A stretch of 64,000 nucleotides of DNA, from assembly GCA_964035575.1 (NCBI GenBank), contig OZ037835.1, forward strand, positions 310,001-374,000, written 5' to 3'. Below are positions 4,325 to 42,393 of the stretch, piece by piece. This stretch comes from Rhynchopus sp. YZ270_cl-10. Taxonomy: Eukaryota. Numbering within the stretch: the stretch's first letter is position 1; each line of letters starts with the position of its first letter. The notes beneath the pieces were generated by a model, which was given only the letters and a program-made list of their open reading frames with translations, made no database searches and had not been told where the DNA came from. The position numbers and the translations under genes are program-made.

Positions 4325-4895
4325 ACAACCTCTCTCCTTTGTCTTTATTGTTTAAATTTTTATACCATATTTTGGGGTTTTTGTTCGCGTAGCGTCCCTC
4401 GGGGTCCTTAGGGTCCTGGAGGATGCGTCCAATGAAAATCACGTCAGTAGAAAAGTTCGAGAATGTAGGTTTTATTATTTTTGTATACAAACATACGAAG
4501 CGGTACGCGTACGGTTTGTAAGGAAATAATACAAACCGAAATGATTGGGCTCTTTCGGATTGAATGATTTGAATAATGTGTGTGTGTGTGTTCGGAAATA
4601 TATACTGTCTCTTTTCTAGCTTGTTTACTGGGGGGGGCCGAATATAAGAAAGGGTATCTTATAATATGCGTAAGAATTAAGCGAAAATGAAGGTTTTAAA
4701 AAATTTAATTTAATTTTTTTAATTTAAGAAAGGGTATCTTAAATTCAACTTTATTCAACTTAAACTACAAAACATAACCGAATCCCCGTGTTTCTACCAG
4801 TTTAAACGCCGGCATTTGCATTTCCGGAATCCGCCCGGCCAGTGGTGGGGTCAATTTGCAGAAATGGACAAGTTCTCGTTTTTGGTCAATTTCCG

Positions 4896-5550
4896 CAGTA
4901 TACACAGTATACACAGTATACACAGTATACACAGTATACACAGTATACACAGTATACACAGTATACACAGTATACACAGTATACACAGTATACACAGTAT
5001 ACACAGTATACACAGTATACACAGTATACACAGTATACACAGTATACACAGTATACACAGTATACACAGTATACACAGTATACACAGTATACACAGTATA
5101 CACAGTATACACAGTATACACAGTATACACAGTATACACAGTATACACAGTATACACAGTATACACAGTATACACAGTATACACAGTATACACAGTATAC
5201 ACAGTATACACAGTATACACAGTATACACAGTATACACAGTATACACAGTATACACAGTATACACAGTATACACAGTATACACAGTATACACAGTATACA
5301 CAGTATACACAGTATACACAGTATACACAGTATACACAGTATACACAGTATACACAGTATACACAGTATACACAGTATACACAGTATACACAGTATACAC
5401 AGTATACACAGTATACACAGTATACACAGTATACACAGTATACACAGTATACACAGTATACACAGTATACACAGTATACACAGTATACACAGTATACACA
5501 GTATACACAGTATACACAGTATACACAGTATACACAGTATACACAGTATA
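4896..5550 (+). repeat. Perfect 9-bp tandem satellite (CAGTATACA)n, about 72-73 copies
   Basis: 655 bp of uninterrupted repeat, directly visible. Confidence 0.98.
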
Positions 5551-9830: not shown

Positions 9831-11583
9831 AGCTGTCACAGCGGAGCTGCTCTACGTTCCTTGCCTAGCTTCTCATGTCGCTCTTTACGAAACACTGCAG
9901 CAAGGCAAGGATGCTTTCGTCTTGTCTCTGCCACGTGTCGGAGGTGCGTCAACCACATACTCCTTCAGCTTGGCTTCACGTACTCGACTGGACACAGCAC
10001 TGCTGCAGCCGGCAAGGTGGATGTTCCTCAACCAAGTGTCGTGGTAGTTCGTACGTATCTCACCCATGTGCGTAACATTGCGGAGTGGCGACAGGTCTAG
10101 TCCTGTGAGGTTGCTGCAGTTGTCGAGAAAGCTTGTACCAATGTTTGTAACATTGCTGAGTGGTGATAAGTCCACTGTTGTGAGGCTTCTGCAGAATGCA
10201 AGAAACTCGTGATCAATTTGTGTAACATTGCGAAGTGGTGATAAGTCTACCGCTGTGAGGCTGATGCAGTAGTAAAGAAAGCCGGTACCCACCCGCGTGA
10301 GACTGGTCAACCCAGAAAGGTCGAGGCTCGTCAACGATGTGCACCCGTAAAGGAAAGTGTCACCAACTTCGGTCACACATGACACAGCACTCAGATCAAG
10401 TGTTGTCATCGATTGACGCGCCAAGAATCCTCCCGGAATGACAGTCGCAACCTCCGCCTGCAGAAGCAAACACGCAACCTCAGCATCCTCCACCTCCTCC
10501 AGCCGCTCCGCTGTGATGTCCGTCTCAGTGTCTCGACTGGACACAGCACTGCTGCAGCCGGCAAGGTGGATGCTCCTCAACGAAGTGTCGTGGTTACTCA
10601 CAGATATAGATTGTAGCTCACCCATGTGCGTAACATTGCGAAGTGGCGACAGGTCGAGTTCTGTGAGGCTGGTGCAGTGTGCAAGAAAGCTTGTACCAAT
10701 GTGTGTAACATTGAGAAGTGGAGATAAGTCCACTTCTGTGAGGCTGGTGCAGTCGGAAAGAAAGCTCGTACTGATGTGTGTAACATTGCGAAGTGGTGAT
10801 AAGTCCACTTCTGTGAGGCTGGTGCAGTTGGCAAGAAAGCAGTCATCAATGTGTGTAACATTGCGGAGTGGAGATAAGTCTACTGCTGCGAGGCTGGTGC
10901 AGTTGTAAAGAAAGCATGCACCAAGCCCAGTAACATTGCTGAGTGGTGATAAATCCACTACTTGGAGGCTGCTGCAGTGGGCAAGAAAATTGTAATAAAT
11001 GTGAGTAACATTGCGAAGTGGAGATAAGTCTAGTTCTGTGAGGCTCCTGCAGTGGGAAAGAAAGTCGGTACCCATGTGCGTAACATTGCGAAGTGGTGAT
11101 AAGTCTACTGCTGTGAGGCCGCTGCAGCCGTAAAGAAAGCGTGTATTAATATGCGTAACATTGCTGAGAGGTGATAAGTCTAGTTCTGTGAGGCTTCTGC
11201 AGCTGGCAAGAAACCAGTCATCAATGTGTGTAACATTGCTGAGTGGTGATAAGTCCACTGCTGTGAGGCTGATGCAGCGGCTAAGAAAGTGGGTACCCAC
11301 CCGCGTGAGACGTGTCAACCCAGACAGGTCGAGGCTTGTTAACGTTGTGCACCCGTAAAGGAAACTGACAGAAATTTCCGTCACACACGACACAGCACTC
11401 AGATCAAGTCTCGTTAACGATGAACGCGCCAAGAATCCTTTCGGAATAACAGTCGCAACCTCCGCCTGCAGAAGCAAACACGCCACCTCAGCATCCTCCA
11501 CAGTCTCCAGCCGCTCTGCTGTGATGTCCTCACCCAACGCATGAAGTGCTGCTCTGGCCGCGAACTTCTTAGTTTTCGTCAGG

Positions 11584-13929
11584 TGGGGGCCCGTTTTCGA
11601 TGCATGCACCCCTATCCGAGATAGGTGATACAATACATCGTGGAGATGATGTTACATAAGTCCATCACCGCCCCTGCTGTGCCCATCCTTCTGCTTCGTC
11701 TGCTTCTTCCTGAAGAAGCCTCCCAGCGTCGTCTGTCGCCCCCTTCGAGGTGTCGTGGTGGCGGCGGCAGCAGTGATCCAGCGTACTCTTCTCTTGCACA
11801 CAGTTCCCGCACCTCGAGAGTCTATGCTTAGTGCACGCTTCGTGTCGGATCGGTAACCCGTCGTCGTTGGAGTGGTGCGCAAAGCAGCAATGCATCAGGT
11901 CTGCCTGGGCGTTCTTCGAGCAGGCATCACACTTCGTCTTCCGGTGCAGCACACATATCGCAAACTGGAAGATCGGAACCGCTCCTTCAGGTGCCTTCAC
12001 GGGTGCGTCCCCTGGACGCACGTGCTCATGGTGCCGGTAGCGAGCATGCGCAGATGTCTCCTGTTCAGCCCGCTGGATGAATGGTAGTGCCCTCCTGCCC
12101 CTAACTTCTGTGGAGGGGTACGCCGTCTCAGCAGAATACTCCCCCATCCATGTACCTCTCGCTCTATCGCCACCACGGAGCTCCACCTCAGACATGCCTT
12201 CGGAGCTGCGTTGCAGCCGGTACGCCACACCAGCATCGTATAGCGCACGCAATGCCTTCAACGTTTCTTCTCCGCCGGCAAAGATAGGACGGCGGTCGAT
12301 GCCTGTGATGGCGTTCGCCCCAAACGAAGCGAGAACATGCGTTATCTTCACCTTCCCCGGATGGAGAGAGCTCTCCGAAAAGGTTCTGAGTGAAGCCAAC
12401 ATATGCCCAAAGGTGGTCGTCTTCGCCATTTCTCTGTGGGCCAGCGCTACTGGCACCACGTCGTCATCATTGTCGTCTTCCCCACTCCCGTCGTCTTCCT
12501 CCCCATTGTTGTCTTCTTCCCCAGTCCCATCCCTCGGCTGCTTCAGCTTCGGCGCTATTCTGCCGGTCTTGTCCCCAGGTCGGATGTCCATCCCTGTGGC
12601 AACCTCGAAGTCGATGAGCAGCTCCATGTGGGAGACTTCACGTCCAGCTTCGTCGCTCCATTGTAAACCACCCAGCCAGGAGGCAAACGCCAGCAGCAGC
12701 GCACGTCCATACGGCCACCTCCTTTTCAGGGGGGTGTAGTCCACCAAACTGTTCGCGTGTTGCGTCGTCGTGCCCAACTCCGGCGCCCACGTCCACGGGT
12801 ATCGGTCTTCTTGCAGTCGCGGGTTCGCCGCTTCCGGTCTGCTCCACTTGGAGCGTGCGATGAGGATGCGCACCATCATCTTCTGCAGGTCTGCAACACG
12901 GGCGCATTCCAAAGGTGTGTCCGGTGTGCACATGCCGCAGATAGCGAGACAGTTTGGCCAGGTCGTTCTGTCAATGTCCAACAGCAAGGGGTACTCCGCA
13001 CGAATGCTACTCCATGCTTCACATTCCCACCACAAGTGTTTGTGATTTTCGTCCACCCCCGCTTCGCAGTGCACGCAGATGGCCGAGTCCCGTATGCGCG
13101 CTCTCGCAAGTCGCACCCCCGTTATCGCACCGTCAGCTACAATGTGTCGCAGCGTCCCCGCCTCGTAATCCGTCAAAGTTTTGCTTCGGGTGAGAGCAAG
13201 GGTTTTCTCCTTATCCACCCCCGCTTCAATACCCTTCAGGTTAGCTCTGCCTTTGCCATTGACCTTCGCAGTCGTCTTCGTACGGGAGAGTCGAATGAAG
13301 AACATCCGTTCTCGCACAACGTGGCCCAGTCTACCCAAGCTTACCGTCTTCACATCAACGATGCTCCCATCGTGCGTTTTCACTTTTGTCGTGTCTATCC
13401 ATGACCACGCAAGGCGGCTGAGGGCTCGCGCAATCAACCCGATGGGTCCTCCAGTCTTCGCCTGCTTCGCTTTCGCACGTGACCTGCACTTTTCGACCAG
13501 CAAACAGATCTCATCCGATTTGCGTATCATCGCCGCCCACGTCATGATCCTTCTGTAGTCGAATGCCACCGAGGGGTCGAGCAGATGGCCTTTCTCGAAG
13601 ACATTCAGCATGACCGGTACGCTTCTTCGGTTCATCTTGTTCACGCCGTGGACCCCTTTCTCCACTGCAGTTGCAAGACTGTTCACGTATTTCCCAGGTG
13701 GGTCCTGCACCGTGATACCGTACACAGATTTCGACATCACTGCAGCCTGCATGATGCCTGCTTTCTCACCTTGAGTCAGCGGGAGGCATCCCACCTTACC
13801 TGCTAGCGGTCCGCATGCGTCGATGGTGTCTTCCAGCTTCGTCGGGAGCGTGGGCGTCCCAGCCTGTCGGGCCTGCACCGTCGCCCCCAGGCACTCCGAC
13901 TTCTCGACGCGAGTAAGATCCGCGCCGTT
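11584..13929 (-). mobile_element. 5'-truncated non-LTR (LINE-type) retrotransposon with 18-bp TSD
   Basis: TTCTTAGTTTTCGTCAGG duplicated at 11566-11583 and 13930-13947; the corresponding site is single-copy in paralogs. Encodes late-RT and CCHC motifs. Confidence 0.9.
11665..13929 (-). CDS. C-terminal part of a non-LTR retrotransposon ORF (late RT/thumb, zf-RVT-like CCHC, Cys/His-rich tail); lacks the RT catalytic core
   Basis: Frame open from the insertion boundary (NGADLTRVEKSECLGATV, like the LINE V...YLG motif), KSVYG, CVHCEAGVDENHKHLWWECEAW, and two Cx2Hx4Cx2C...HCCxxHH motifs. Confidence 0.75.
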   Translation of the reverse strand, partial: NGADLTRVEKSECLGATVQARQAGTPTLPTKLEDTIDACGPLAGKVGCLPLTQGEKAGIMQAAVMSKSVYGITVQDPPGKYVNSLATAVEKGVHGVNKMNRRSVPVMLNVFEKGHLLDPSVAFDYRRIMTWAAMIRKSDEICLLVEKCRSRAKAKQAKTGGPIGLIARALSRLAWSWIDTTKVKTHDGSIVDVKTVSLGRLGHVVRERMFFIRLSRTKTTAKVNGKGRANLKGIEAGVDKEKTLALTRSKTLTDYEAGTLRHIVADGAITGVRLARARIRDSAICVHCEAGVDENHKHLWWECEAWSSIRAEYPLLLDIDRTTWPNCLAICGMCTPDTPLECARVADLQKMMVRILIARSKWSRPEAANPRLQEDRYPWTWAPELGTTTQHANSLVDYTPLKRRWPYGRALLLAFASWLGGLQWSDEAGREVSHMELLIDFEVATGMDIRPGDKTGRIAPKLKQPRDGTGEEDNNGEEDDGSGEDDNDDDVVPVALAHREMAKTTTFGHMLASLRTFSESSLHPGKVKITHVLASFGANAITGIDRRPIFAGGEETLKALRALYDAGVAYRLQRSSEGMSEVELRGGDRARGTWMGEYSAETAYPSTEVRGRRALPFIQRAEQETSAHARYRHHEHVRPGDAPVKAPEGAVPIFQFAICVLHRKTKCDACSKNAQADLMHCCFAHHSNDDGLPIRHEACTKHRLSRCGNCVQEKSTLDHCCRRHHDTSKGATDDAGRLLQEEADEAEGWAQQGR

Positions 13930-14972: not shown

Positions 14973-16351
14973 TTACGAAACACTGCAGCAATGCACAGCT
15001 TCTTTCGTCTTGCCTCTGCCACGTGTCGGAGGTGCGTCAACCACATACTTCTTCAGCTCGCCTTCACGTACTCGACTGGACACAGCACTGCTGCAGCCAG
15101 CAAGGTGTATGTTCCTCAACGAAGTGTAACCTTCCGCAGGAAGCTCACCAAAGTGCGTTATTCTGCTGAGTGGTGATAGGTCGAGTTCTGTGAGGCTGCT
15201 GCAGAATGCAAGAAACCGGTCATCAATATGAGTAACATTGCTGAGTGGTGATAAGTCTGCTGTGGTGAGGCTCGTGCAGCCGGCAAGAAAGCGGTGATTA
15301 ATGTGAGTAGCATTGCGAAATGGTGATAAGTCTATTACTGTGAGGCTGCTGCAGTTGAAAAGAAATCTGGTACCAATGTGAGTAACATTGCTGAGTGGTG
15401 ATAAGTCCACTACTTTGAGGCTGATGCAGCCGGCAAGAAAGCTTGTATTAATGTGAGTAACATTGCGAAATGGTGATAAGTCTAGTTCTGTGAGGCTGCT
15501 GCAGTGGGCAAGAAAGCTTGTACCAATTTGAGAAACATTGCGAAGTGGTGATAACCCTGCTGTTGTGAGCCTGGTGCAGTCGGCAAGAAACCGGTGACTA
15601 ATGTGAGTAACATTGCTGAGTGGTGATAAGTCCACTGCTGTGAGGCTGCTGCAGCCGGCAAGAAAGCTTGTATTAATGTGAGTAACATTGCGAAATGGAG
15701 ATAAGTCTAGTTCTGTGAGGCTGCTGCAGTTGGAGAGAAAGCTTAGAGCCATGTGTCCACTGCTGTGAGGCTCATGCAGTTGTGAAGAAAGCTTCCATCA
15801 ATGTGAGTAACATTGCTGAGTGGTGATAAGCCCACTGCTGTGAGGCTGACGCAGTTGTATAGAAAGTGGGTACCAATCCGCGTGAGACGTGTCAACCCAG
15901 ACAAGTCGACGCTCGTCAACGTTGCGCAATTCTGAAGAAACTGATCACCAACCTCCATCACACAGGACACAGCACTCAGATCAAGTCTCGTTAACGACGT
16001 GTGTGCCAAGAATCCTTTCGGAATGACAGTCGCAACCTCCGCCTGCAGAAGCAAACACGCCACCTCAGGATCCTCCACAGTCGCCAGCCTCTCCGCTGTG
16101 ATGTCCTCACCCAACGCATGAAGTGCTGCTCTGGCCACGAACTTCTTACTTTTCGTCAGGATGATTGTGTCTCCAGCACTCAGCTGCGTGATGTCGTCTC
16201 CTTCGTCCTTCCCTCCGAAGCCCATGTGGAAACTGTCCTCAGCCAACCCCACTGCAGACGCCACCTTCTGCCGCATCGTCTCCGTTGTGTCATCCACACC
16301 CACCTCGATCACATGCGAGTTGTCTGCACAGTCCTTGATAACTACTTCCAT
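14973..16351 (-). pseudogene. UBL-LRR-CaaX gene with frameshift in the fourth LRR
   Basis: ORFs 15743-16351 and 14973-15752 are the two halves; near 15745-15755 the LSPLSNVTHIGT-coding part is replaced by about 10 unrelated bases. About 12 LRRs, ends CCSVS*. Confidence 0.8.
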
Positions 16352-18424: not shown

Positions 18425-21400
18425 TCACCATTCGTCACTCTGACTGCATTCGTCGGCCTCCTTGACAGCACAAAGAATCCGTCTCGCAAGTTCAGGTTCC
18501 ACAGCATCAGCATTGCGACAGCCTAATGCACGAGGAACTGTTGGAGGGACACCGATCACTCTTTTCAGCCGCAACCCATCAACCGTCCCGTCTTCCCCAG
18601 TGCAGATGCTCCACACACGCACAGTGATGTCCCCGCAAGCACAGATCACTTCGCATCCATCAGGGCTCACAGCAAGACTGCGCAATTCACAATGTGCCCT
18701 GATGACTGCCACCTTCTCACCAGTGGTCATGCTCCACACACTCACGCCATCTGCATTCGACACCACGTGAGCTCCATCAGGTGTCAGTGCCACTTCGAAC
18801 ACGGACTCATCATGCTCCAAGGTGAAGACCTCCTTCCCGCTGGCAACATCCCACACACGCACAGTCCTGTCAGAAGAGCATGAAACAAGACGAGACCCAT
18901 CGCGACTCACATCCACGCAGTAGACATCGTCAGTATGTCCCTCGAACACCATCGTCTCTTCTCCAGTATGAAGTGTCCACATGTGCACGGAGACGTCAGA
19001 ATAGTAAGAAACCACACGCACTCCATCAGGAGCCACTACCACTCCTCTGGGACTGCGAGTGGTTTCCGCAAATTCTGACACCTTCTTCCCAGTCGGCATG
19101 CTCCACACATACGTACAGTAAGTGTCTTCATCCTCAGCAGACTGTGAGCAGGTCACCACGTGAGATGCATCGGGAGACACTGCAAAGCAGAGCAGTGGTC
19201 CACACTGTTTCAAGAACACCGCAAACTCACTAGAATCTGTGCACAAAGGCCGCACTTTCCCCGTCGCAACGTCCCACACACACGCTCTCCTTTCGCCAGC
19301 GTCGTCGCAAGAGCAATCAACGACATGAGAGCCATCTGGGTACACAGCAGCAGCATCGCCATATTTATGTATCCCTGCTTCAACTACCTGTGTCTGCCTG
19401 CCGGTGGATGCGTTCCAGATGGAGCTCCTCTTGCCACCGTACGAAATGATAGATCCATCAGGGGCCACTGCCACAGTCTTGCCTGAGAGTCCTTCGAAAC
19501 CTGGTGTCTCCTTCCCGGTCGTGATGTTCCACACTCGAACAGTGCCGTCGTAGCGGGCGCATGAAACCACGCGGCATCCATCTGGTGTTACTGCCACTGC
19601 CGCTACAAACGAAGTATGTCCTTGCAACACCGTCACCTCCTTCCCAGTAGAAATGCTCCAAACGTGCACATTGCCGCTCTGGGAGCCAGCAACCACGTGA
19701 CATCCATCGGGAGTGACTGCCACTGATCTCAACTCAGCGCCAGCGTGGAACACCATCACCTCTGCCCCAGTCGAGAGGTTCCAAAGATGTGCACCATCAG
19801 AGCATGTAACAACGTGGCATCCATCGGGGGTGACTGCCAGCTGATGCGAAAACTCCACACAGCAAGGCCACTGCATCTCCTGCTTCCCCGTCACCAGATC
19901 CCATACGCACAGCACCTCCTCAGAGCATGTCACTATTTGACTTCCATCCTTCGTAATAACCATGCTGCGAATGCCAGGCCACTTTATTGCCAGCACTTCC
20001 ATCCCCGTCGAGAGATCCCACACACGGATGCCGTCTTCATCAGAAGTTGAAACAACTTTAGAACTGTCGGGAGTGACTGCCATTTCGTTCACCTCAGCTT
20101 CGTGGCCTTCCAAGACGAACACTGCCTCCCCAGTGTGCATATCCCACACACGCACAGCTTTGTCAGCAGAGCACGAAACTACGCGGATTCCGTCAGGTGT
20201 TACTGCTACTCTAGAGATTTGCCCCACGTTGCCTTTCCAGACCATCACTTCTTCCCCAGAAGACATACTCCACACATGTACTCTGCCGTCGTGGCCTGCT
20301 GTTAGCATTTGACTGCCATCAGGTGTCACTACCACATCATTGGCACCATGCTCCAGGACAGGAAGTGGTGTGCCAAGGGAGCAGTCAGGCAGCATCGTGC
20401 CACCCATGTCGCAGGTGTGGAACTCAGTGTGCTCCAGCCAGCAGTTCGAGAAGGAAGCGCCCGTCAGCGCCGTCTCCACAAACAGAGACCCACGCAGGTC
20501 GCAGTTAGACACACGGATCCCGCTCAGGTCCTCCCCACTCACAGGGATGCGTGCACGTGCCAGCAGTGCTGCTGCATTCGACCCTGCCGTCACAGCAGCC
20601 TCGCCACCATCACCTGCACTGCCGCGTGTCGCCTTCACAGCCGCAAGCAGCTCTGTGCAGGCACGTTCGTACAGCACACTGTCTCCACACACCAGTGCCG
20701 CAAAGAACCCAAGCACACGCTGCGAGTCCTTGCTGAAGCTCCGCTGCACCAGCGTCCCCAGTGTCCCTGCTGGATCACGTGCAAGCCGCCGTGCTGCAAG
20801 GTGCTCCCCAAGCGACTTGTGCCGGAACGTGAACGCACTCCGCTCCTCCCCAAAGTCCTCAATCCGGAACGGCAGGCAGCGGAAGCACGCATCCCGCACA
20901 GCCTCACACACACCGTGCTGCGAATCAAGAATCTGCGACGCCACACCCACAGTCCCCTGCCACTCGTTTGTCTCCAGCATCCTGCATGCAACAAGCTCCC
21001 CTGCACGCACCACATCGTCCAAAGACACATCCGAAACAGCAACAGCAACTCCACCAGACGCCATCTCCTTCTTCGTCCACGTCTCCAGGTAGGCCTCGTA
21101 GATCACCTCCTCAGAAGCCTTCCCGCTGCACTGTGCGTGGCACGCCATGTGCAGCACAAAAGGGTTCCGCAACTGCACAAGTCCCTCAACATCCTCCTCA
21201 CGCACGAAGACTGTGCGCTCTCCATCCTTCTTCTTCTCCTTCTCCTCTTTGTGTTCCTTCTCCTTCTCCCAGGCTGTGTTTGCACGCTCGATGTACGTTC
21301 TCGCATCCACCTCTGTGAACGGCTGCATGTACACAGCACGCACACCAGCACCACACACACCAGACGGAGACGTGTCCACACCCTTCAGATACTCACCACG

Positions 21401-30164: not shown

Positions 30165-31331
30165 TTACATGCACACACATTCGCAACCGACCGTTTTCAC
30201 ATCTCGGCTACGCAATGCATGTTTTGACACAACTCTGCTCGATCCGGTGGCATTGACGTTGCTAGCTGGTATCGTGCATCCTTCCAGGAAGCCGATGCCT
30301 ATGTGATGCACACTCGTCCACCCAGACATGTCAAGTGTCGTCAATGAGTGGCAGTTGTGGAGAAAGAAGTACTCAATGCTCGCCACATTGTTCCACCCAG
30401 ATACGTTAAGTGCTGTCAACGAGGTGCAGTTGGAGAGGAAAGAGGAGCCGATGTACGTAACATTGTTCCACCCAGACAAATCTAGGGTTCGTAGCGCCCT
30501 GCAGTCGGCGAGAAAGGAGGGGTTCAGGCGTCGCACAGTGTTCCACCCAGACAAATCAAGTGTAGTTAACCCGCTGCAGTCGGAGAGGAAGCCGTTATCA
30601 ATTTGCATCACATTGTTCCACCCAGTCAAGTCAACAGTCTGCAATGACCTGCAGTGGGAGAGGAACCTCTGTGCAATTTGCGTCACATTGCCCCATCCGG
30701 TGAAGTCGACTGTCCGCAACGACCTGCAGTGGTACAGGAAGAAGTTTCCAATGTGAGTCACATTGTTCCACCCAGATATGTTAAGTGTCGTCATCGCAGT
30801 GCAGTGGGAAAGAAAGGAGCCTCCAATGTGCGTCACATTGCTCCACCCGGATAAATCAACAGTGTGCAGTGAGGTGCAGCTTAGCAGGAAGTCGTCACCT
30901 ACATGAGTAACAACTGACACATTGCTGAAATCAACTTCTGCTAAAAAAGTGCTCACCCACCTGTCCCCTTCCAAGAATTTATCGGGAATCTCAGTAACAA
31001 CTTCTGCCTGCAGAAACAAATGAACCAGCTTGGGATCTGTCAGACCTTCGAACCTCTCTCTTGTCAGCCTTGTCTCACCCAAGTCACGAAGAGCTGCAAT
31101 GGCGTCGTCCTTCTGCGACTTCGTCTTCTTCGTCAGCACAACTGTGTCCCCAGCACTCAGCTGCGTGATGTGGTCTTCGGCCATCACCTTCCCTCCGAAG
31201 CTCATGTCAAAGCCGTCTTCGCGCAACTCTGCTGCAGACGCCACCTTCCGCCGTATGTCCGCAGTTGTATCATCCACACCCACATCGACTGTGTACTTCT
31301 CTCCGTCAAAGCTCTCCGCACATATTTCCAT
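30165..31331 (-). CDS. Divergent UBL + BspA-type LRR protein with CaaX (388 aa)
   Basis: Start set at MEICAESFDG by alignment to paralogs; FGGK and ITQLSAGDT conserved; 9 x 25-aa LxTxDLSGWNNVTxIxxxFLxxC; ends GCECVCM*. Confidence 0.85.
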   Translation of the reverse strand: MEICAESFDGEKYTVDVGVDDTTADIRRKVASAAELREDGFDMSFGGKVMAEDHITQLSAGDTVVLTKKTKSQKDDAIAALRDLGETRLTRERFEGLTDPKLVHLFLQAEVVTEIPDKFLEGDRWVSTFLAEVDFSNVSVVTHVGDDFLLSCTSLHTVDLSGWSNVTHIGGSFLSHCTAMTTLNISGWNNVTHIGNFFLYHCRSLRTVDFTGWGNVTQIAQRFLSHCRSLQTVDLTGWNNVMQIDNGFLSDCSGLTTLDLSGWNTVRRLNPSFLADCRALRTLDLSGWNNVTYIGSSFLSNCTSLTALNVSGWNNVASIEYFFLHNCHSLTTLDMSGWTSVHHIGIGFLEGCTIPASNVNATGSSRVVSKHALRSRDVKTVGCECVCM

Positions 31332-31931
31332 GGTTTTGTGTCTCTCTGTTTTGTGGCATTTTTGTTGGATGGGACAAGAACAAACACGGGCACGTTGATC
31401 GGGCATAATGCTCCACGACCCACTCAGTATGAATGCGTCCTCCCTTCGCGCTTTACTATGCACAAAAAGGTGTTATGCTGTATTGTACTGTGGGAGGCAA
31501 GGCTGCGGCTGGCTAACCACTGACAGCACACTTCCCCGCAGAGTGTGGCAAGAATGTGAACGCAAAAACTGTGCATACTTTTTTGCTTTTAAAAAAATCG
31601 AGCTAAGATGGAAATCTTAACGTACACCACTCGGAGTTCTAAAATGGGGGAGGGGAGGGGAGGGAGGGAAAACTGCATTATAAACGACCCTATTTACCCT
31701 GAAGTACAGAAATCAGGTAGTTAAAAGGGGAGAAAAACTACGGGGTGTCAATAGCTATCATTCACCTCACACAAGGAAAAACGGGAAACAAAACAAAGAG
31801 AGAGTTTGTTAGTTGTACCCTGCCAATGGGTAGCGCACCAATGTTTTGGTTGTTTTGTACTTTTTTATTGGGACTCGTCCACAAGATCTGTAGGACTTTC
31901 TCTATCGAAAACCTGAAATCCCCCATTTTGT

Positions 31932-34286
31932 TCACGCCCCCTTTCCATGGAGAAGCTTGCGTTCGTAAGAAAACGAGGCTGCCACGGGTAAACAGTCAGA
32001 CTCAACCATTTCACGTAGGTGTTTTATGACCGCAGCACGCTCTGGGGTCAGCGTGAGCGCAGACACCCTGGCGACAACGTCGCGAGCCTCTTTGACACGC
32101 ACTGCCTTGATGTCCGCACAGAGCTGGATCATCAGCATCGCGACCTTGTCCACCCCGTTGTCCGCCATCTGGTACAGCCACTCCTGGTCCTCATTCATCT
32201 CCTTCGCACCCTCGAAGATGAAGATCACGTCTGGATGCTTCGCGTTGTCGAACTTCACAACGTCGCACACCTCCCACATGTGTGTTATCTCTGTTTGGTC
32301 GCGGATTTTTTTGGTAAAGAGAAGAGGCTTCCGGTGATATGCCCCTAGGGAGGCGAGGAAGAAGGACTGTGCTCGTGTCTCGGTTAGTGTTGCGACAGTG
32401 CGAATGGTGTTGCCGCCGGCACTGCCGGTCATCCCGGGGCCCATGACACAGCCGATGGCAAGCGCGCCAGGGAGAGGGAAGGAGAGGAGGCGTTCGACTG
32501 TCTGCGTGACATTTGTCAGGTTCGCAAAGTTCTCGCGGCCCCAGATGACCGAGAAGCAGTCGCTGCTGATCTGGTCGAGCGTGCCCTTGCAGGATGAAGC
32601 ACTTTCAGAGATGGCCTCAAGCACTATGCAGTGCGCAGCGTGCAGGCGGTCCACGTCTTTATGCTCCATGGGGTAGGCTACTTTGATGGACATCACGGTA
32701 AGGTGCTTCTTGTAGTCAAATGTACGTGACACGGAGTTCAACGCACGCGCCTGTGCCTGCTGTGCAGGCGAGTACACGACGCTACCCCCACGTGTACCAG
32801 TACCGCCACGACTATCGGTCCTTTGTGTGTGTGTGGCGAACGACATAGTCGTCTTATCACTCCCTGCAGAGGAGTCGTCCTGCACAAAGAGCGCCTGCGG
32901 CATGTACGATTTGATCACTTTCATCTGTTTGAGCAACGTGATGAAGGTCAACTGTAAGGTGCGGATTTCTGTCCAGCCAGACATCTCCACGGAATCTTCA
33001 CTCATACGGAACTCAGACAGCAGCTCCAACTCTGCGGCAAGACGGTGAAGGGGCGCAATAAAAAAGTACACCACCACCGCACTTAAAAACGCCTTCACAA
33101 TCAATACCGAGATGTACATCAGCAGCAGCCCCACCTTCGTTTTGTTGATTTCTTCAAGAAACACCGACTCCGGGAGCAGAATGACGACACACCACTTCAA
33201 GTTATTCCTTTCTATTGCACTGATTGATATAAAGTGTTTGTCCCCTGAGACGACCAATGTGTCCGACACACCGCTCATATAGTCCCAAGCACCTACACGC
33301 GACACAACGTAGTCGTGCGATGTCTTTATGTAATCCACTACGCTTTCATTAACAGGAACAAACTGTATGGTTCCCTTGCATGCCACCCCACCAAGCATGG
33401 GGGACGTCTCGAGAGCCGACATCCTGCAGTACAGAAGTGGGGTGTTGTCAGCTGTTCCGATCACCGCCTGCACACCACCTTGCCGCGCAACGTCCTTCAC
33501 ATCGACAACAAACGCCTTATACCCTACAGGCAGCTGCACATTCCTCAACAACTCCCCAGCGAACCCCAGCGCCATATCAATCGTTGTCACCCCCATCAAA
33601 CCACTTCGCGTATATGACACTGTCGACTCCGACAACATTGTGACCGGCGTCTGAGAACCCATCGTGTAAATGGACGTCCACGCTTTGTCATATGGAACGG
33701 AAACATTACACACAGTATACCACTCCTGTTCCGAGCTATTATAGTCTCCCTCCACGTAAAGCAGACGTGGTGTACCCGGCAGGCCTTCGTGCGGTAGTGG
33801 CAGAGTAGTGTTGAAGTCGTACAGTTGTACTTTGCCTGAAGCAGAGGTGTTGCTCGACCAAAACCCCTTATGTACACCAACCGAGTCTGTGTAGACACCA
33901 TGCAGGTGTCCAAGCTTAGTGGTCATGGAGACCGTGGTAATGGATTTTTTATATGCATCTAATTGCGTTTTAAAAACCTGCATGAAATAAGGGACGTCGT
34001 GTTCAGAGAAAAGGTCTGTAGAGAAGATGCGTGCATTGGCGAGGGTGACGGTTTCGGCTACGTCAAGGTGGTGTGTCAGAGCGGTTTTGATGTGCGATCG
34101 GATTTCTGTCATTAGCTTGTCGGATAAATCGTTGACAGCGTCCGTTGCGGAGTCGGAAGAGACCTTCCAAGTGATGATGCCTGATGAATACATACACACC
34201 ATCAAAACGGAGAGCACAAAACGAAGCGAGAAAAGTGTTCGTACAACCACACCACGTTCGTCTGCGAGGATCTCAACATCTTCCAT
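31932..34286 (-). CDS. Receptor-type cyclase-like protein with strongly degenerate cyclase domain (784 aa)
   Basis: TM, dCache-like segment (EQEWYT...AWTSIY...GVTTIDMAL), TM, HAMP (IAPLHRLA...TEIRTLQ), KSYMPQAL, GTLDQISSDCF, EWLYQ. Confidence 0.75.
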   Translation of the reverse strand: MEDVEILADERGVVVRTLFSLRFVLSVLMVCMYSSGIITWKVSSDSATDAVNDLSDKLMTEIRSHIKTALTHHLDVAETVTLANARIFSTDLFSEHDVPYFMQVFKTQLDAYKKSITTVSMTTKLGHLHGVYTDSVGVHKGFWSSNTSASGKVQLYDFNTTLPLPHEGLPGTPRLLYVEGDYNSSEQEWYTVCNVSVPYDKAWTSIYTMGSQTPVTMLSESTVSYTRSGLMGVTTIDMALGFAGELLRNVQLPVGYKAFVVDVKDVARQGGVQAVIGTADNTPLLYCRMSALETSPMLGGVACKGTIQFVPVNESVVDYIKTSHDYVVSRVGAWDYMSGVSDTLVVSGDKHFISISAIERNNLKWCVVILLPESVFLEEINKTKVGLLLMYISVLIVKAFLSAVVVYFFIAPLHRLAAELELLSEFRMSEDSVEMSGWTEIRTLQLTFITLLKQMKVIKSYMPQALFVQDDSSAGSDKTTMSFATHTQRTDSRGGTGTRGGSVVYSPAQQAQARALNSVSRTFDYKKHLTVMSIKVAYPMEHKDVDRLHAAHCIVLEAISESASSCKGTLDQISSDCFSVIWGRENFANLTNVTQTVERLLSFPLPGALAIGCVMGPGMTGSAGGNTIRTVATLTETRAQSFFLASLGAYHRKPLLFTKKIRDQTEITHMWEVCDVVKFDNAKHPDVIFIFEGAKEMNEDQEWLYQMADNGVDKVAMLMIQLCADIKAVRVKEARDVVARVSALTLTPERAAVIKHLREMVESDCLPVAASFSYERKLLHGKGA

Positions 34287-36021: not shown

Positions 36022-37569
36022 TCAAAATCGCGAGGCACGAGAGTTTGCTGCCTCAAGCTCCAAGTACAATACATCAATAAGCACCTGTGCAGCTTCATCG
36101 TCTGCGACGCGCACTCCCGCACCTGCTCTGACCAACATCTTCACAATATCACGTGCTCCTGAAGTGCAAGCAACGTGCAGAGGCGAACGTCCGTCGTTGT
36201 TCTGTGTGTTCACGTCTGCACCTGCATCAACCAACACCTGCACCACGTCTGTATGCTTCTTAAACGCCGCTAAGTGCAACGCAGTGTGGTTGGACGCAGC
36301 TGCTATTGCTATTGATAGGTAATTCACATCCACCTCTGGCAGGCCCACAAGATAGCGAACAATGTCGGTGTGTCCCTGCCACGCCGCAAGCATAAGACAC
36401 GTGCATCCTTGGTTGTCTGTGGCACGCACTCCCGCACCTGCTCTGACCAACATCTTCACAATGTCAAGTTCCCCTGATTTACAAGAAACGTGCAGAGGCG
36501 ACCTTCCCTCGTTGTTCTGTGTGTCCACGTCTGCACCTGCATCAATCAGCACCTGCACAACTTCTGTGCGCTTCATATCCACCGCTTCCTGCAATGCAGT
36601 GTCATGGTAATCATTTCGGCGATTCACATCCACCTCAGGCAAGCACAAAAGATAGCGCACAATCTCAGTGCGTCCTTTATACGCCGCATGCGCAAGACAG
36701 GCGGATCCTCTGGAGTCTGTGACACACACTCCCGCACCTGCTCTGACCAACACCTTCACAACATCGAGCACTCCAGTGATGCAAGCCCACTGCAGAGGCG
36801 AACGATCCTCGAAGTTCATTGCTTCAATGTCTGCACCTGCATCAATCAGCACCTGCACCACGTCTGTGTGCTCCGAAGCAGAGTGCAACGCAGTGAAGCT
36901 TTCATCGTCTCTGTGATTCACTTCCACCTGGAACAAACCCACAAGATAGCGAACAGTCTCGGTGTGTCCAGTATACGTTGCACTGCTAAGACAGGTCTCT
37001 CCGCCGTCATCGGTGTCACGCACTCCCGCACCTGCTTCAACCAACATCTTCACAACGTCAAGTGCTCCAGCACCGCAAGCATAGTGCAGAGGAGGGGCTC
37101 GGCCCGTCGCCTTTGTATGTAAGTCTGACCCTGCATCAATCAAGACACGACACACTGCAGGGTCTGACCACATGGCCGGACAGTCATCCTCCTCACCTGC
37201 GCTGTGTTGGGACTCGTGCCGGACAAACGCCACGTTCTTGCAGACTGACTTCCAATGCTGCAAGAGGACCTGCGTGCACGCAACGTGGTCTGCGTGGACA
37301 CACTCACTCAGCAGACTCCCAAAGTCCATCTGCGTTGTCTCAACATACGGAAGAAGCAGTGTGAGGCATTCATCGTGGTTCCCTCTGCATGCCTCGTGCG
37401 CAGCATCGAAGGCCGCTTTTGTTCTGTCTGGGTTGAACTTCTCAAGGAACGCCCGCACGGCAGTCGTGTCGCCGTTCCTGGCAGCCTCCACGAAGGCCTC
37501 GTCTGCAGAAAGCTGTCTTCTCTTTCGTGGGTTCTCGTCCTGTGTGCTGTCTGCGTGTCGCTTTGGCAT
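36022..37569 (-). CDS. Ankyrin repeat protein, array copy 1 (515 aa)
   Basis: Multiple ankyrin repeats (SPLHxAC...DIVKMLVRAGA); N-terminal KR-x10-RKRR. Confidence 0.9.
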   Translation of the reverse strand: MPKRHADSTQDENPRKRRQLSADEAFVEAARNGDTTAVRAFLEKFNPDRTKAAFDAAHEACRGNHDECLTLLLPYVETTQMDFGSLLSECVHADHVACTQVLLQHWKSVCKNVAFVRHESQHSAGEEDDCPAMWSDPAVCRVLIDAGSDLHTKATGRAPPLHYACGAGALDVVKMLVEAGAGVRDTDDGGETCLSSATYTGHTETVRYLVGLFQVEVNHRDDESFTALHSASEHTDVVQVLIDAGADIEAMNFEDRSPLQWACITGVLDVVKVLVRAGAGVCVTDSRGSACLAHAAYKGRTEIVRYLLCLPEVDVNRRNDYHDTALQEAVDMKRTEVVQVLIDAGADVDTQNNEGRSPLHVSCKSGELDIVKMLVRAGAGVRATDNQGCTCLMLAAWQGHTDIVRYLVGLPEVDVNYLSIAIAAASNHTALHLAAFKKHTDVVQVLVDAGADVNTQNNDGRSPLHVACTSGARDIVKMLVRAGAGVRVADDEAAQVLIDVLYLELEAANSRASRF

Positions 37570-38130
37570 CGTGTGTTTGTGTTGTGTATTGTTGCTGTTA
37601 TTTGTGTTGTGCTTTCATCTTACAAAGGATTCTTCTTCATCTGGACGACGTGCTTTAGTTCACTACGTTTGTACGCCATTTACCGTAAAGAAGGTGCCAC
37701 CAAGCAGAGGGCATCACTGTAGGAAAGACACGCTGAGGCGGTCTTCACTGCAGCATGTGAAGTTGTGTATCAGATGCGATCAACAAAACAGTAAACTACA
37801 CATAAAGACACAAGGCGTGGGTTAGCCCTAATACAGCTTCCTTCGCACTCCCCACCCCCTCCCTGAAGCCCTTTCCTTTCCCCTCTCCCAAAACCCTATT
37901 TGTAGAATACGGTAAGGGACGCTGTACGATGTAACCCCTTCCACGGGTGTTTTTGTCATTGCGTTCTGCGTTTACGTATTTCAGCACATTGCTTCAAGAA
38001 GCCGTCCGTTGATGTGGTCTTCGTCCTGTCGTCACCCACAACCTCTGCACAAAACTATTCTCTCGTCCTGTGCCACCTTGCAACTGAAACACCCCACCAC
38101 CTCCAACGCAGCTAACACACAGCTGGGAGG

Positions 38131-39672
38131 TCACATTCGCGAGGCACGAGAGTTTGCTGCCTCAAGCTCCAAGTACAATACATCAATCAGCATCTGTGCA
38201 GCTTTATCATCTGCAACACGTACTCCCGCACCTGCTCTGACCAACATCTTCACAATGTCAAGTGCTCCTTTTTCTAAAGCAGTGTGAAGAGGCGAACGTC
38301 CCAGGTTGTTCTGTGTGTCGATGTCTGCACCTGCATCAATCAGCACCTGCACTACGTCTGTCCGCTTATAAAACGCTGCTAAGTGCAACGCAGTGTGGTT
38401 GGAAGCAGCTGCTTCTGATTGGTAATTCAGTTCCACCCCTCGCAGGCCCACAAGATAGCGAACAATGTCGGTGTGTCCCTGCCACGTCGCAAGCATAAGA
38501 CATGTGTACCCATCATTGTCTGTGGCACGCACTCCCGCACCTGCTTCAACCAACATCTTCACAATGTCAAGCGCTCCTGAAGTACAAGCAGAGTGCAGAG
38601 ACGAACGTCTCTCGTTGTTCTGTGTGTCCACGTCTGCACCTGCATCAATCAGCACCTGCACAATGTCTGTTTCCTTCATAAACACCGCTTCCTGCAATGC
38701 AGTTTTGTTGTCATCATTTAGGCGATTCACATCCACCTCTGGCAAGCACAGAAGATAGCGCACAGTCTCGGTGTGTCCAAAATAAGCCGCATGCGCAAGA
38801 CAGGCGGATCCTGCCACGTCTGTGACACACACTCCCGCACCTGCTCTGACCAACACCTTCACAACATCGAGCACTCCAGTGATGCAAGCCCACTGCAGAG
38901 GCGAACGATCCTCGAAGTTCATTGCTTCAATGTCTGCACCTGCATCAATCAGCACCTGCACCACGTCTGTGTGCTCCGAAGCAGAGTGCAACGCAGTGAA
39001 GCTTTCATCGTTGCTGTGATTCACTTCCACCTGGAACAAACCCACAAGATAGCGCACAGTCTCGGTGTGTCCATTATACGCCGCACGGTCGAGACAGGTC
39101 TCTCCGCCTTCCTCTGTGGCACGCACTCCTGCACCTGCTTCAACCAACATCTTTACAACGTCAAGTGCTCCTGCACCGCAAGCATAGTGCAGAGGCGAAC
39201 TTCCGTACTGCGCCTTTGTATTTACGTCTGCCCCTGCATCAATCAAGACGCGACACACTGCAGGGTCTGACCACATGGCCGGACAGTCATCCTCCTCACC
39301 TGCGCTGTGTTGGGACTCGTGCCGGACAAACGCCACGTTCTTGCAGACTGACTTCCAATGCTGCAAGAGGACCTGCGTGCACGCAACGTGGTCTGCGTGG
39401 ACACACTCACTCAGCAGACTCCCAAAGTCCATCTGCGTTGTCTCAACATACGGAAGAAGCAGTGTGAGGCATTCATCGTGGTTCCCTCTGCATGCCTCGT
39501 GCGCAGCATCGAAGGCCGCTTTTGTTCTGTCTGGGTTGAACTTCTCAAGGAACGCCCGCACGGCAGTCGTTTCGCCGTTCCTGGCAGCCTCCACGAAGAC
39601 CTCGTCTGCAGAAAGCTGTCTTCTCTTTCGTGGGTTGTCGTCCTGCGTGCTGTCTGCGTGTCGCTTCGGCAT
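38131..39672 (-). CDS. Ankyrin repeat protein, array copy 2 (513 aa)
   Basis: Paralog of copy 1; start set at the shared MPKRH. Confidence 0.9.
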   Translation of the reverse strand: MPKRHADSTQDDNPRKRRQLSADEVFVEAARNGETTAVRAFLEKFNPDRTKAAFDAAHEACRGNHDECLTLLLPYVETTQMDFGSLLSECVHADHVACTQVLLQHWKSVCKNVAFVRHESQHSAGEEDDCPAMWSDPAVCRVLIDAGADVNTKAQYGSSPLHYACGAGALDVVKMLVEAGAGVRATEEGGETCLDRAAYNGHTETVRYLVGLFQVEVNHSNDESFTALHSASEHTDVVQVLIDAGADIEAMNFEDRSPLQWACITGVLDVVKVLVRAGAGVCVTDVAGSACLAHAAYFGHTETVRYLLCLPEVDVNRLNDDNKTALQEAVFMKETDIVQVLIDAGADVDTQNNERRSSLHSACTSGALDIVKMLVEAGAGVRATDNDGYTCLMLATWQGHTDIVRYLVGLRGVELNYQSEAAASNHTALHLAAFYKRTDVVQVLIDAGADIDTQNNLGRSPLHTALEKGALDIVKMLVRAGAGVRVADDKAAQMLIDVLYLELEAANSRASRM

Positions 39673-39806
39673 TGTGTGTTTGTGTTGTGTATTGTTGCTG
39701 TCATTTGTGTTGTATTCATTTAGTGCATGGAAGGCTTCTTTGAAGCAATGTGCAGAACACATTGACAAAAACGTACACATTGAGGGTTAGATTGCGGTAT
39801 TCCTTA

Positions 39807-39906
39807 CCGTATTCGTCAAAATTATAGACCGTACTAATGTTCGACCTTTTCAGGAATTATCTGGAAGTTCGACCTTTAATATGGTCGATGATTTGTACGT
39901 ATACGG
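39807..39906. mobile_element. 100-bp MITE, TA TSD, CCGTA... imperfect 24-bp TIR
   Basis: TA-CCGTATTCGTCAAAATTATAGACC...GGTCGATGATTTGTACGTATACGG-TA; second copy at 46171-46270. Confidence 0.65.
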
Positions 39907-40284
39907 TAAACAGGGTTTTGGGTCTACTGGGTCAGAGGGGGAAAGGAAAGGGCTTCAGGGAGGGGGTGGGGAGTGCGAAGGAAGCTGTATAAGGGCTAAC
40001 CCACGCCTTGTGTCTTTATTTGTAGTTTACTGTTTTGTTGATCGCATCTGATACACAACCCCATGGTCCTTTGAAATGCTCTAAATACAGAGCAAAGAAT
40101 GTATGAACTCTAAGAGTGGCTAGGGCACTGCTTCTTTACGATAAATGGCGTACAAACATAGTGAACTAAAGCACGTCGCCCAGATGAAGAAGAATCCTTT
40201 GTAAGATGAAAGCCTCTCGTCCTGTGCCACCTTGCAACTGAAACACCCCACCACCTCCAACGCAGCTAACACACAGCTGGGAGG

Positions 40285-41832
40285 TCACATTCGCGAGGCA
40301 CGAGATTTTTCGGCTTCAAGCTCCAAGTACAATACATCAATGAGCACCTGTGCAGCTTCATAGTCTCCGACACGTACTCCCGCACCTGCTCTGACCAACA
40401 TCTTCACAATGTCACGTGCTCCTTTTTTGCAAGCATAGTGCAGAGGCGAATGTCTCAGGTTGTTCTGTGTGTCGATGTCTGCACCTGCATCAATCAGCAC
40501 CTGCACCACATCTGTGCGCTTATTACGCGCTGCTAAGTGCAATGCAGTGTTACTGGAAGCAGCTGCTCCTGATTGGTGATTCAGTTCCACCTCTGGCACA
40601 CCCACAAGATAGCGAACAATGTCGGTGTGTCCATGCCACGCCGCAAGCATAAGACATGTGTACCCATCATTGTCTGCGACACTCACTCCCGCACCAGCTC
40701 TGACCAACATCTTCACAATGTCAAGTTCTCCTGATTTACAAGCAACGTAAAGAGGCGAATGTCCCTCGTTGTTCTGTGTGTTCACGTCTGCACCTGCATC
40801 AATCAGCAAGTGCACAATGTCTGTGCGGTTCATAAACACCGCATGCTGCAATGCAGTTTTGTTGTCATCATTCCGGAGATTCACATCCACCTCTGGCAAG
40901 CACAGAAGATAGCGCACAATATCGGTGCAACCATTAGCTGACGCTTGCGCAAGACAGGCACATCCTCTGGAGTCTGTGACAGACACTCCCGCACCTGCCT
41001 TGACCAACACCTTCACAACTTCGAGCGCTCCGTCAGTCATGCAAGCCCACTGCAGAGGCGAAGATACGTCGTTGTTCTGTGTGTCGATGTCTGCACCTGC
41101 ATCAATCAGCACCTGCACCACGTCTGTGTGCTCCATAGCAGAGTACAACACAGTGTAGCCATCATCGTCTCTGTGATTCACTTCCACCTGGAACAAGCCC
41201 ACAAGATAGCGAACAGTTTCGGTGTGTCCATTACGTGCCGCACTGCTAAGACAGGTCTCTCCGTCGTTGTCTGTGGCACGCACTCCCGCACCTGCTTCAA
41301 CCAACATCTTCACAACGTCAAGTGCTCCTGCACCGCAAGCATAGTGCAGTAGTGAAGTTCCGTACTCGTCTTTTGTATGTAAGTCTGACCCTGCATCAAT
41401 CAAGAAACGACACACTGCAGGGTCTGACCACATGGCCGGACAGTCACCCACTGACTGACCTGCGCTGTGTTTGGACTCGTGCCGGACAAACGCCACGTTG
41501 TTGCAGACGGATTTCCAATGCTGCAAGAGGACCTCCGTGCACGCAACGTGGTCTGCGTGGACACACTCACTCAGCAGACTCCCAATGTCCATCTGCGTTG
41601 TCTCAACATACGGAAGAAGCAGTGTGAGGCATTCATCGTGGTTCCCTCTGCATGCCTCGTGCGCAGCATCGAAGGCCACTTTCTTTCTGTCTGGGTTGAA
41701 CTTCTCAAGGAACGCCCGCACGGCAGTCGTGTCGCCGTTCCTGGCAGCCTCCACGAAGACCTCGTCTGCAGAAAGCTGTCTTCTCTTTCGTGGGTTCTCG
41801 TCCTGCGTGCTGTCTGCGTGTCGCTTCGGCAT
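40285..41832 (-). CDS. Ankyrin repeat protein, array copy 3 (515 aa)
   Basis: Paralog; start at MPKRH. Confidence 0.9.
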   Translation of the reverse strand: MPKRHADSTQDENPRKRRQLSADEVFVEAARNGDTTAVRAFLEKFNPDRKKVAFDAAHEACRGNHDECLTLLLPYVETTQMDIGSLLSECVHADHVACTEVLLQHWKSVCNNVAFVRHESKHSAGQSVGDCPAMWSDPAVCRFLIDAGSDLHTKDEYGTSLLHYACGAGALDVVKMLVEAGAGVRATDNDGETCLSSAARNGHTETVRYLVGLFQVEVNHRDDDGYTVLYSAMEHTDVVQVLIDAGADIDTQNNDVSSPLQWACMTDGALEVVKVLVKAGAGVSVTDSRGCACLAQASANGCTDIVRYLLCLPEVDVNLRNDDNKTALQHAVFMNRTDIVHLLIDAGADVNTQNNEGHSPLYVACKSGELDIVKMLVRAGAGVSVADNDGYTCLMLAAWHGHTDIVRYLVGVPEVELNHQSGAAASSNTALHLAARNKRTDVVQVLIDAGADIDTQNNLRHSPLHYACKKGARDIVKMLVRAGAGVRVGDYEAAQVLIDVLYLELEAEKSRASRM

Positions 41833-42393
41833 TGTGTGTTTGTGTTGTGTATTGTTGCTGTCATTTGTGTTGGAATAGTTTTGTGCAGAGGTTGTGGGTG
41901 ACGAGACGACGAAGACCACATCAACGGACGGCTTCTTGAAGCAATGTGCTGAAACACGTAAACGCAGAACGCAATGACAAAAACACCCGTGGAAGGGGTT
42001 ACATCGTACAGCGTCCCTTACCGTATTCTACAATTAGGGTTTTGGGAGAGGGGAAAGGAAAGGGCTTCAGGGAGGGGGTGGGGAGTGCGAAGGAAGCTGT
42101 ATAAGGACTAACCCACGCCTTGTGTCTTTATTTGTCGTTTACTGTTTTGTTGATCGCATCTGATACACAACTTCACATGCTGCAGTGAAGACCGCCTCAG
42201 CGTGTCTTTCCTACAGTAATGCCCTATGCTTGGTGGCACCTTCTTTATGGTAAATGGCGTACAAACGTAGTGAACTAAAGCACGTCGTCCAGATGAAGAA
42301 GAATCCTTTGTAAGATGAAAGCCTCTCGTCCTGTGCCTCCTTGCAACTGAAACACCCCACCACCTCCAACGCAGCTAACACACAGCTGGGAGG

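Follow-up and report, generated by a model that had tools for sequence, protein, structure and literature searches.

What would a single-celled eukaryote do with a protein that places a toxin-type enzyme ahead of the switch and sensor of an innate immune receptor? This question is raised by one gene in a 64,000-nucleotide stretch of contig OZ037835.1 of Rhynchopus sp. YZ270_cl-10 (assembly GCA_964035575.1, positions 310,001 to 374,000 of the forward strand), referred to below as the window. The gene occupies 18425..23641 (-) as a single ATG-to-stop open reading frame (ORF) of 1738 amino acids (aa). From the N-terminus its parts are a myristoylation motif, ankyrin repeats, an ADP-ribosyltransferase (ART) domain, a NACHT module, pentapeptide repeats and 14 WD40 blades, an order of effector, NACHT and repeat sensor. 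The gene is real and intact and appears intronless, judging from the open frame and from copies that align over 95-100% of aa 180-1000. An initial annotation, made from the letters alone, had called the single ORF and the ankyrin, ART, NACHT, pentapeptide and WD40 domains, all of which are upheld by profile and fold tests, and had placed VFRG, FTSTT, SEDELL, Walker A and B, and MGSGAS where we find them. What is notable about the gene is that a unicellular eukaryote combines the known NLR/STAND plan with an ART effector, and with a large repertoire whose sensors vary as those of HET-E do. The catalytic and Walker residues are intact, the copies are many, and a constant effector and switch stand against a variable sensor face.

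The evidence for the effector comes from profiles and from a structural model. Pfam was run on slices of the protein, with cut-offs of 22.3 bits for ART, 20.2 for Pentapeptide and 26.7 for NACHT, and the ART family (PF01129) scored 29.1 bits. A model of aa 190-555, built from a 58-row alignment, has a predicted local distance difference test score (pLDDT) of 92.3. It matches HopU1 (Z 15.0, root-mean-square deviation 3.7 over 207 residues) and rat ART2.2 (Z 14.8, 3.2 over 194), followed by a Tre1-type toxin (Z 14.1), XopAI (13.9), ExoS (13.0) and Vis (12.4). The top 18 rows of the structure search (VIA) are R-S-E ARTs or proteins with such a domain, and of 118 Foldseek matches at E<=1e-3 the 35 shown are all ART-fold toxins, effectors or ecto-enzymes. 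The initial annotation had allowed that the region might not fold as an ART, and an ART fold is what was found. Because the structural matches span model residues ~4-310, with Foldseek in agreement, we place the domain at aa ~193-500 (22142..23065 (-)). The interval first proposed, ~22220-22655, does contain an ART; it is too narrow, and the N-terminal helices that it omits align to HopU1 and ART2.2. The domain carries a beta-hairpin insertion at aa ~275-310 in the model. A prediction of the complex between ART and NACHT, made without alignments, scored 0.01.

The R-S-E clade is defined by an Arg in strand 1, a Ser in strand 2 and a Glu in strand 5 (PMC7955679). In our protein these are R398 (codon 22450-22448, inside VFRG at 22456-22445), S421 in FTSTT (S421-T-T, 22387-22373) and E463 (E461-D-E463 in SEDELL, 22264-22247), all on the minus strand. 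The family profile aligns FRG, FTSTS and ExE with the corresponding motifs of ART2.2 (E 1.4e-10); the ART slice on its own gave no useful match when searched against the sequences in PDB. By the features tested the domain is an R-S-E (ARTC) ADP-ribosyltransferase, with enzyme activity predicted from its sequence and model. The earlier description of it as cholera-toxin-like is right as to the R-S-E clade, but the branch with the nearest fold is that of HopU1, ART2.2, ExoS, C3 and VIP2, with pertussis toxin at only Z 3.1. In the Atlas, the clusters most similar to this ART are eukaryotic ARTs that stand alone.

The switch lies downstream of the ART, at 20762..21841 (-), and comprises a nucleotide-binding domain, a helical domain and a winged helix (FRHKSLGE). 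The family profile aligns with the NACHT of NLRP3 (E 3e-9), from the two Walker motifs through sensor-1 to the winged helix. The model that covers aa 510-1100 (pLDDT 88.3) gave Foldseek matches to NLRC4 (E 5e-12), NOD2 (3e-10) and NLRP3 (3e-9), and the matches listed are animal NLR NACHT modules. Walker A, GEGGSGKT (aa 608-615, 21820-21797 (-)), fits GxxxxGK[ST]. Walker B, VLVLDSLDE (21529-21503 (-)), contains DSLDE and so fits D[GAS]hDE, the NACHT Walker B signature according to the accessible part of a preprint (10.1101/2022.07.19.500537); the sensor-1 motif TVR lies within the same module. By these features, which are those of sequence and model, the protein is a NACHT-type STAND NTPase related to NLRs. 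For the NACHT-pentapeptide part, the Atlas leads to bacterial clusters (cyanobacterial NACHT-pentapeptide) at 0.83-0.86, and these are to be read as leads only.

The window contains one copy of this gene. A search with aa 180-1000 against a protein set clustered at 90% identity returned 72 proteins, of which 61 (self included) are 73-100% identical and the rest range down to 35%; the copies are 88-96% identical over aa 180-1000. R, S and ExE are all retained in 61/61 close copies, as are Walker A and Walker B, and R, S and [EQ]xE in 71 of the 72 matches. Most close copies (57/61) are longer than 1600 aa. Twenty-seven matches are apparently on one contig (1539504 nt), 7 on another (1020051) and 6 on a third (798917), with one more possibly on the window's own record, which suggests that close copies are clustered on single contigs. 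Shortened gene pieces lie on the same apparent contigs. In run X1, 7236 short contigs match the 5.7-kb stretch at >=85% likeness, as expected of a many-copy gene; run X7 gave coverage here of a simple repeat only. Three rearranged relatives, P0049, P0062 and P0064, are apparently on one contig (185426 nt). P0049 has the block of winged helix, pentapeptide and WD40 three times, and in P0064 the WD40 of one copy runs into the next copy, whose ART is without ExE; these may be tandem fusions or assembly errors. Contig joints from runs X1 and X2 skip forward or back by 80-485 bases in the WD40 region (window 18600-20200), which may reflect a shuffling of blades among copies or short contigs placed on similar blades.

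The variation among copies was measured in 60 of them (P0001-P0061, the tandem fusion P0049 being set aside). Any two are on average 0.97 identical in the ART and 0.94-0.95 in NACHT, compared with 0.74 and 0.66 in the two halves of the WD40 region. In 11 blades the entropy maxima are found at blade-turn offsets -8, -6 and +10 (3.17, 2.85 and 2.85 bits), against 0.25-0.56 bits in the bottom turns. Over 14 blades, the pairwise amino-acid difference is 0.79 at -8/-6 (R1-2/R1), 0.65 at D-1 and 0.54 at D+1, the latter two flanking the conserved Asp of each blade. For comparison, the bottom turns differ by 0.09-0.12, the core strands by 0.18, two disordered linkers by 0.15-0.20 and the ART by 0.035. 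Each top-face site accommodates 8-12 residue types on average and up to 17, and 38-47% of the differences there require at least two base changes, versus 7-16% elsewhere. No random draw of offsets reached the observed mean (0/100000). Copies that are 99% identical in the ART have just 14-33% of their R1/R1-2 residues in common. Measured against the window protein (n=59), median identity is 0.98 for the ART, 0.85 for the blade framework and 0.25 for the -8/-6 sites, and there is no co-variation of ART and sensor.

These positions may be compared with those of HET-E. According to Paoletti et al. 2007 (PMC1805685), every HET-E repeat has four positively selected codons, 7, 9, 25 and 27, which form pairs around the conserved codons 8 and 26 and lie at the top of the propeller. 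Offsets -8, -6 and +10 match the spacing of codons 7, 9 and 25. In our own mapping they correspond to R1-2, R1 and D-1, which are top-face binding hotspots of WD40 proteins in the available part of Wu et al. 2012 (PMC3419727). Adenine mutagenesis like that of a diversity-generating retroelement was considered and rejected: codons and residues of all types occur at the top face.

To place the gene in a wider family, aa 181-550 were used as a HMMER query against 1.84 billion representatives. This gave 163 matches, of which the best 150 (50%-identity clusters) were examined. An ART followed by an NTPase was found, with profiles built here, in 65 of the 150 listed clusters, the two being a median of 72 aa apart (60-194). 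Among the matches listed, R, S and [EQ]xE are intact in 58 of these 65 representatives, QxE replaces ExE in 8/65 and a D[GAS]hDE Walker B is present in 51/65; the triad is kept among relatives only 20-50% identical. Winged helix, pentapeptide and WD40 are also found in 28/65. Other relatives, in scans of 22 and 9, end in BspA-type leucine-rich repeats (BspA-LRR), LRR or tetratricopeptide repeats, or begin with an RCC1, ANF-receptor or phosphatase-like domain. The sensor is swapped in some members of the wider ART-NACHT family. A GTDB scan with the single protein, sensitive to close relatives only, yielded 51 pattern matches and 0 confirmed.

Thirty relatives were looked up and 17 could be named, 16 of them euglenozoan. 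Thirteen are diplonemids: Lacrimia (5), Namystynia (3), Diplonema papillatum, D. ambulator, Flectonema, Artemidia and 'Hpha', which we read as Hemistasia. The remaining named relatives are Papus, Apiculatamorpha, Euglena gracilis and Pigoraptor chileana, the first two of which we take to be prokinetoplastids. Since 15 of the 17 bear transcript-assembly names, these relatives are transcribed. A quick tree of 65 rows, from which six short or partial representatives were omitted and to which six family rows were added, puts the window protein in a clade with a Shimodaira-Hasegawa-like approximate likelihood ratio (SH-aLRT) value of 98, and the named members of this clade are all diplonemids. We rejected a filasterean range based on the Pigoraptor record alone. 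A kinetoplastid, Parabodo caudatus, served as food for that clone (PMC7147346), and the Pigoraptor row groups with a Lacrimia sequence, so that the record may be prey sequence. The relative from Diplonema papillatum (KAJ9461234.1) has the same plan and is annotated merely as a WD-repeat protein.

The protein begins with MGSGAS (23624..23641 (-)). MGxxxS is the N-myristoylation consensus, and the modification is predicted here. MG[SC][GA][ATV]S is found within the first 200 aa in 58/61 close copies, in 36 of them at the called start, and an MG-x-x-x-S start is seen in several distant relatives as well. No hydrophobic signal or membrane segment was detected at the N-terminus, where the best 19-residue hydropathy in the first 40 windows is 1.27.

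Several known systems resemble this protein in part. The closest analogy is with the NWD/HNWD family of Podospora anserina (HET-D, HET-E, HET-R, NWD2), which shares the N-terminal effector, NACHT, WD40 and membership in a gene family. In both, variation falls on the same four sites at the top of each blade, here at the amino-acid level (PMC1805685). Unlike those proteins, which carry a HET domain or an amyloid motif, ours has an R-S-E ART; it also has the additional myristoylation motif, ankyrin and pentapeptide parts, its host is unicellular, and at least 61 copies contrast with 10 Podospora genes. No HET domain was matched in the Pfam slices at E<=10, and the ART takes that position. Blades within P0001 are alike by only 0.35 on average (8 scored blades), as against the 85% criterion for fungal repeats (PMC4986451). 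The blades of P0068 and P0069 (46% identity) are internally 0.64 alike, nearer to the HET-E pattern. We rejected membership in HNWD for want of a HET domain and of internal repeat conservation; the protein would nevertheless work like HET-E.

Bacterial NACHT (bNACHT) and Avs anti-phage STAND proteins share the tripartite plan with an enzymatic effector and the D[GAS]hDE Walker B, and pentapeptide sensors are among those given in the bNACHT preprint, in the section available (10.1101/2022.07.19.500537). In addition, the family profile matches the solved 1523-aa 'AAA family ATPase' 9n00 (E 3e-10), which appears to be an Avs protein. In contrast to the window protein, that section lists no ART effector, term look-ups gave none in the text and supplements of a 2026 STAND survey, and the single-protein GTDB scan gave no close bacterial relative. 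The R-S-E mono-ARTs (HopU1, ART2.2, Tre1-type, ExoS, Vis, C3, VIP2) share the fold (Z 11-15) and the aligned R, S-x-[ST] and ExE; at 12-21% identity, the window protein differs from them in being fused ahead of NACHT and in being neither secreted nor anchored by glycosylphosphatidylinositol. Membership in the vertebrate ecto-ARTs (ART1-5) was rejected, there being no signal peptide and the ART being internal to a 1738-aa protein. Plant TNLs and the TEP1/NWD TeTIR-NACHT-WD40 proteins also have an NAD+-using enzyme directly upstream of NACHT and a WD40 sensor, in the available part of bioRxiv 10.64898/2026.09.21.753143; theirs is a TIR-fold NADase, whereas here it is an ART-fold transferase. The initial annotation knew of no characterised eukaryotic protein with this architecture, and in the literature searched we likewise found no ART-NACHT protein, an earlier computational mention being possible. 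Term look-ups gave no mention in the TeTIR and bNACHT preprints, the 2026 STAND survey with its supplements, fungal NLR surveys, an ART-like family paper, the accessible part of a polymorphic toxin paper, or the D. papillatum genome paper.

As a whole, these results favor, with a probability of roughly 0.6, the conclusion that the gene is one receptor of a defence repertoire, in which binding of a foreign molecule by the sensor would switch on ADP-ribosylation. They thereby support the initial annotation, which had proposed a membrane-tethered sensor that turns on ADP-ribosylation or NAD+ consumption upon ligand binding, as a protist immune or cell-death switch; the output may be cell death, an attack on the invader or a non-lethal signal. 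A plausible sequence of events may be drawn by analogy with HET-E, Apaf-1, NLRC4 and the bacterial NACHT/Avs proteins. The myristoylated N-terminus would anchor the protein to the inner face of the membrane, with the resting NACHT closed around ADP. A ligand at the WD40 top face would then provoke exchange of ADP for ATP and oligomerisation, so that the ART, which sits at a constant distance of ~70 aa from the NTPase, would be freed or clustered and would move ADP-ribose from NAD+ onto arginines of a conserved host target. As a result the affected cell would stop growing or die. Every copy would sense a different ligand and all would share one output; that the ART hardly varies fits a single fixed substrate.

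Several observations weigh against this conclusion. The Pfam NACHT/nSTAND1 signal is weak, NACHT scoring 15.6 bits, under the cut-off, which one relative, P0105, narrowly exceeds at 26.9 bits. PADLOC, whose models include neither domain, gave no match to the ART or NACHT slices. Seven of the 65 representatives are without the full triad in the alignment, two of these being fragments that begin past the catalytic core, and P0064 has lost ExE. P0078 and P0079 are full-length, with an eroded ART active site and long branches in the same clade; possibly they are sensor-only or decoy members. The 61 copies may not all derive from one genome. Only 42-58 of the 60 rows per blade passed the homology filter, and clustering at 90%, which drops near-identical copies, inflates the overall WD divergence, though not the contrast within blades. 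Positive selection at the top face is suggested by amino-acid differences, with the linkers as a near-neutral yardstick, and HET-E-type concerted evolution is absent from the blades of P0001. Finally, some ART-NACHT relatives have ANF-receptor, RCC1 or PDZ domains, and those that begin with an ANF-receptor or RCC1 domain may be ordinary signalling proteins.

The last point speaks for the alternative that survives best, although we regard it as unlikely: that the copies are receptors for prey, mates, kin or nutrients, in which arginine ADP-ribosylation is reversible and serves as a normal, non-lethal signal rather than for defence. Receptor-like genes with weak HAMP/PDC matches also adjoin the locus (26931-29525 and 31932-34286), and kin recognition drives diversifying selection too, as in HET-E (PMC1805685, in the part available). 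Against it, near-saturated variation of a binding face in copies 97% identical elsewhere, together with the many shortened copies, looks more like an arms race, and those NACHT proteins with an N-terminal enzyme that have been tested are conflict proteins (10.1101/2022.07.19.500537).

It is less probable still that the ART modifies the bound foreign protein itself or acts mainly by hydrolysing NAD+. Sensor and enzyme do share one chain, and other STAND effectors (TIR, Sir2, TeTIR) consume NAD+ (10.64898/2026.09.21.753143, 10.1101/2022.07.19.500537). Rat ART2.2 has NAD hydrolase activity, and the QxE of eight representatives is the form that it shows in the alignment. However, ExE is by the specificity rule the motif of arginine transferases. 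It is present in all 61 close copies and is the motif of ART1 and ART5 (PMC7955679), and the absence of co-variation between ART and sensor argues against modification of each bound invader.

We give little credence to a non-adaptive tandem amplification, in which ART and NACHT would be alike from youth or gene conversion and the WD40 would drift. The clustering and the 88-96% identity of the copies would fit this, as would the other tandem arrays in the window. Such drift does not predict variation limited to four sites in each blade, all of them on the same face and at 3-5x the level of disordered linkers, beside adjacent turns at 9-12%, or retention of the triad in relatives just 20-50% identical. 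Least probable is an exported weapon, a toxin whose WD40 face would pick the target and which would be sent into cells of the prey or host: its nearest folds are bacterial effectors and toxins, but the N-terminus has no hydrophobic signal or membrane segment, the myristoylation motif and intact NACHT switch point to a regulated cytosolic protein, and the nearest ART look-alike clusters are eukaryotic.

Returning to the defence repertoire, a broader proposal, for which we would put the odds at a little under even, is that euglenozoans possess their own NLR class with a cytosolic arginine ADP-ribosyltransferase as executioner, and at least 60 diversifying receptors, each for a different viral, bacterial or non-self protein. 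If true, a single-celled eukaryote would have innate immunity in the style of plants and fungi and would turn a toxin-type enzyme on itself. Large bacterial NACHT repertoires have been tied to multicellular life (10.1101/2022.07.19.500537, in the part available). The NLR effectors known to use NAD+ are NADases, either TIR-like or sirtuin, and an ART-armed family would add a new effector chemistry. It would also provide a physiological role for a cytosolic R-S-E ART in eukaryotes and a way to study the recognition of viruses, endosymbionts or kin by free-living protists. Diplonema papillatum is transformable, and its relative of the same plan makes the idea testable.

The remaining parts of the protein may be described briefly. 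Ankyrin repeats are present as first annotated, with only about two of them (aa 13-78, 23408..23605 (-), Pfam Ank_2 E 1.8e-8), and the copies are 95% identical there. They are followed by a Thr/Asp-rich low-complexity linker (aa ~101-190, 23072..23341 (-)), in which copies differ pairwise by 15%. A conserved helix, helical in both models, links ART and NACHT (aa 513-537, 22031..22105 (-)). Behind the winged helix, the secondary structure of the model indicates a helical domain (aa 961-1035, 20537..20761 (-)), and the pentapeptide repeats (aa 1036-1095, 20357..20536 (-)) score 26.4 bits with PF00805, above the cut-off, and form repeated short strands in the model. The WD40 region with its hypervariable top-face residues (18572..20356 (-), E 3e-56) has 14 blade turns, and its 14 blades likely form two 7-bladed propellers.

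The long ORFs of the window are mostly on a single strand and free of introns; together with the clade of the window protein, whose named members are diplonemids, this layout makes a diplonemid the likely source. The GC content at third codon positions of our gene is 0.63, and because this falls within the range of neighbouring ORFs (0.54-0.67) the gene looks native to the contig. Dispersed around it on the minus strand are copies of a gene with ubiquitin-like and BspA-LRR parts (1539-2492, 9885-11583, 14973-16351, 24197-25537, 30165-31406 and 62218-62724), some of them split or shortened. In 22 LRR units of these genes the residues near the FL motif are the most variable (2.0-2.9 bits) and the frame is fixed, so that they are possibly a second variable sensor family. 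Six ankyrin-repeat genes stand in tandem at 36022-48165 (-), five intact and one split (42394-43933). The intact five have pairwise ratios of nonsynonymous to synonymous differences (pN/pS) of 0.61-0.95, high for conserved genes. The two membrane receptor-like ORFs at 26931-29525 and 31932-34286 are also on the minus strand, and by eye their C-terminal part is like a degenerate nucleotide cyclase. A 695-aa ORF at 11665-13752 (-) has no Pfam match but a CxxC...H..WxC motif, which by eye is similar to the C-terminal region of non-LTR retroelement proteins. A 9-bp tandem repeat at ~4890-5550 reads (IHS)n on the plus strand and is probably not a gene.

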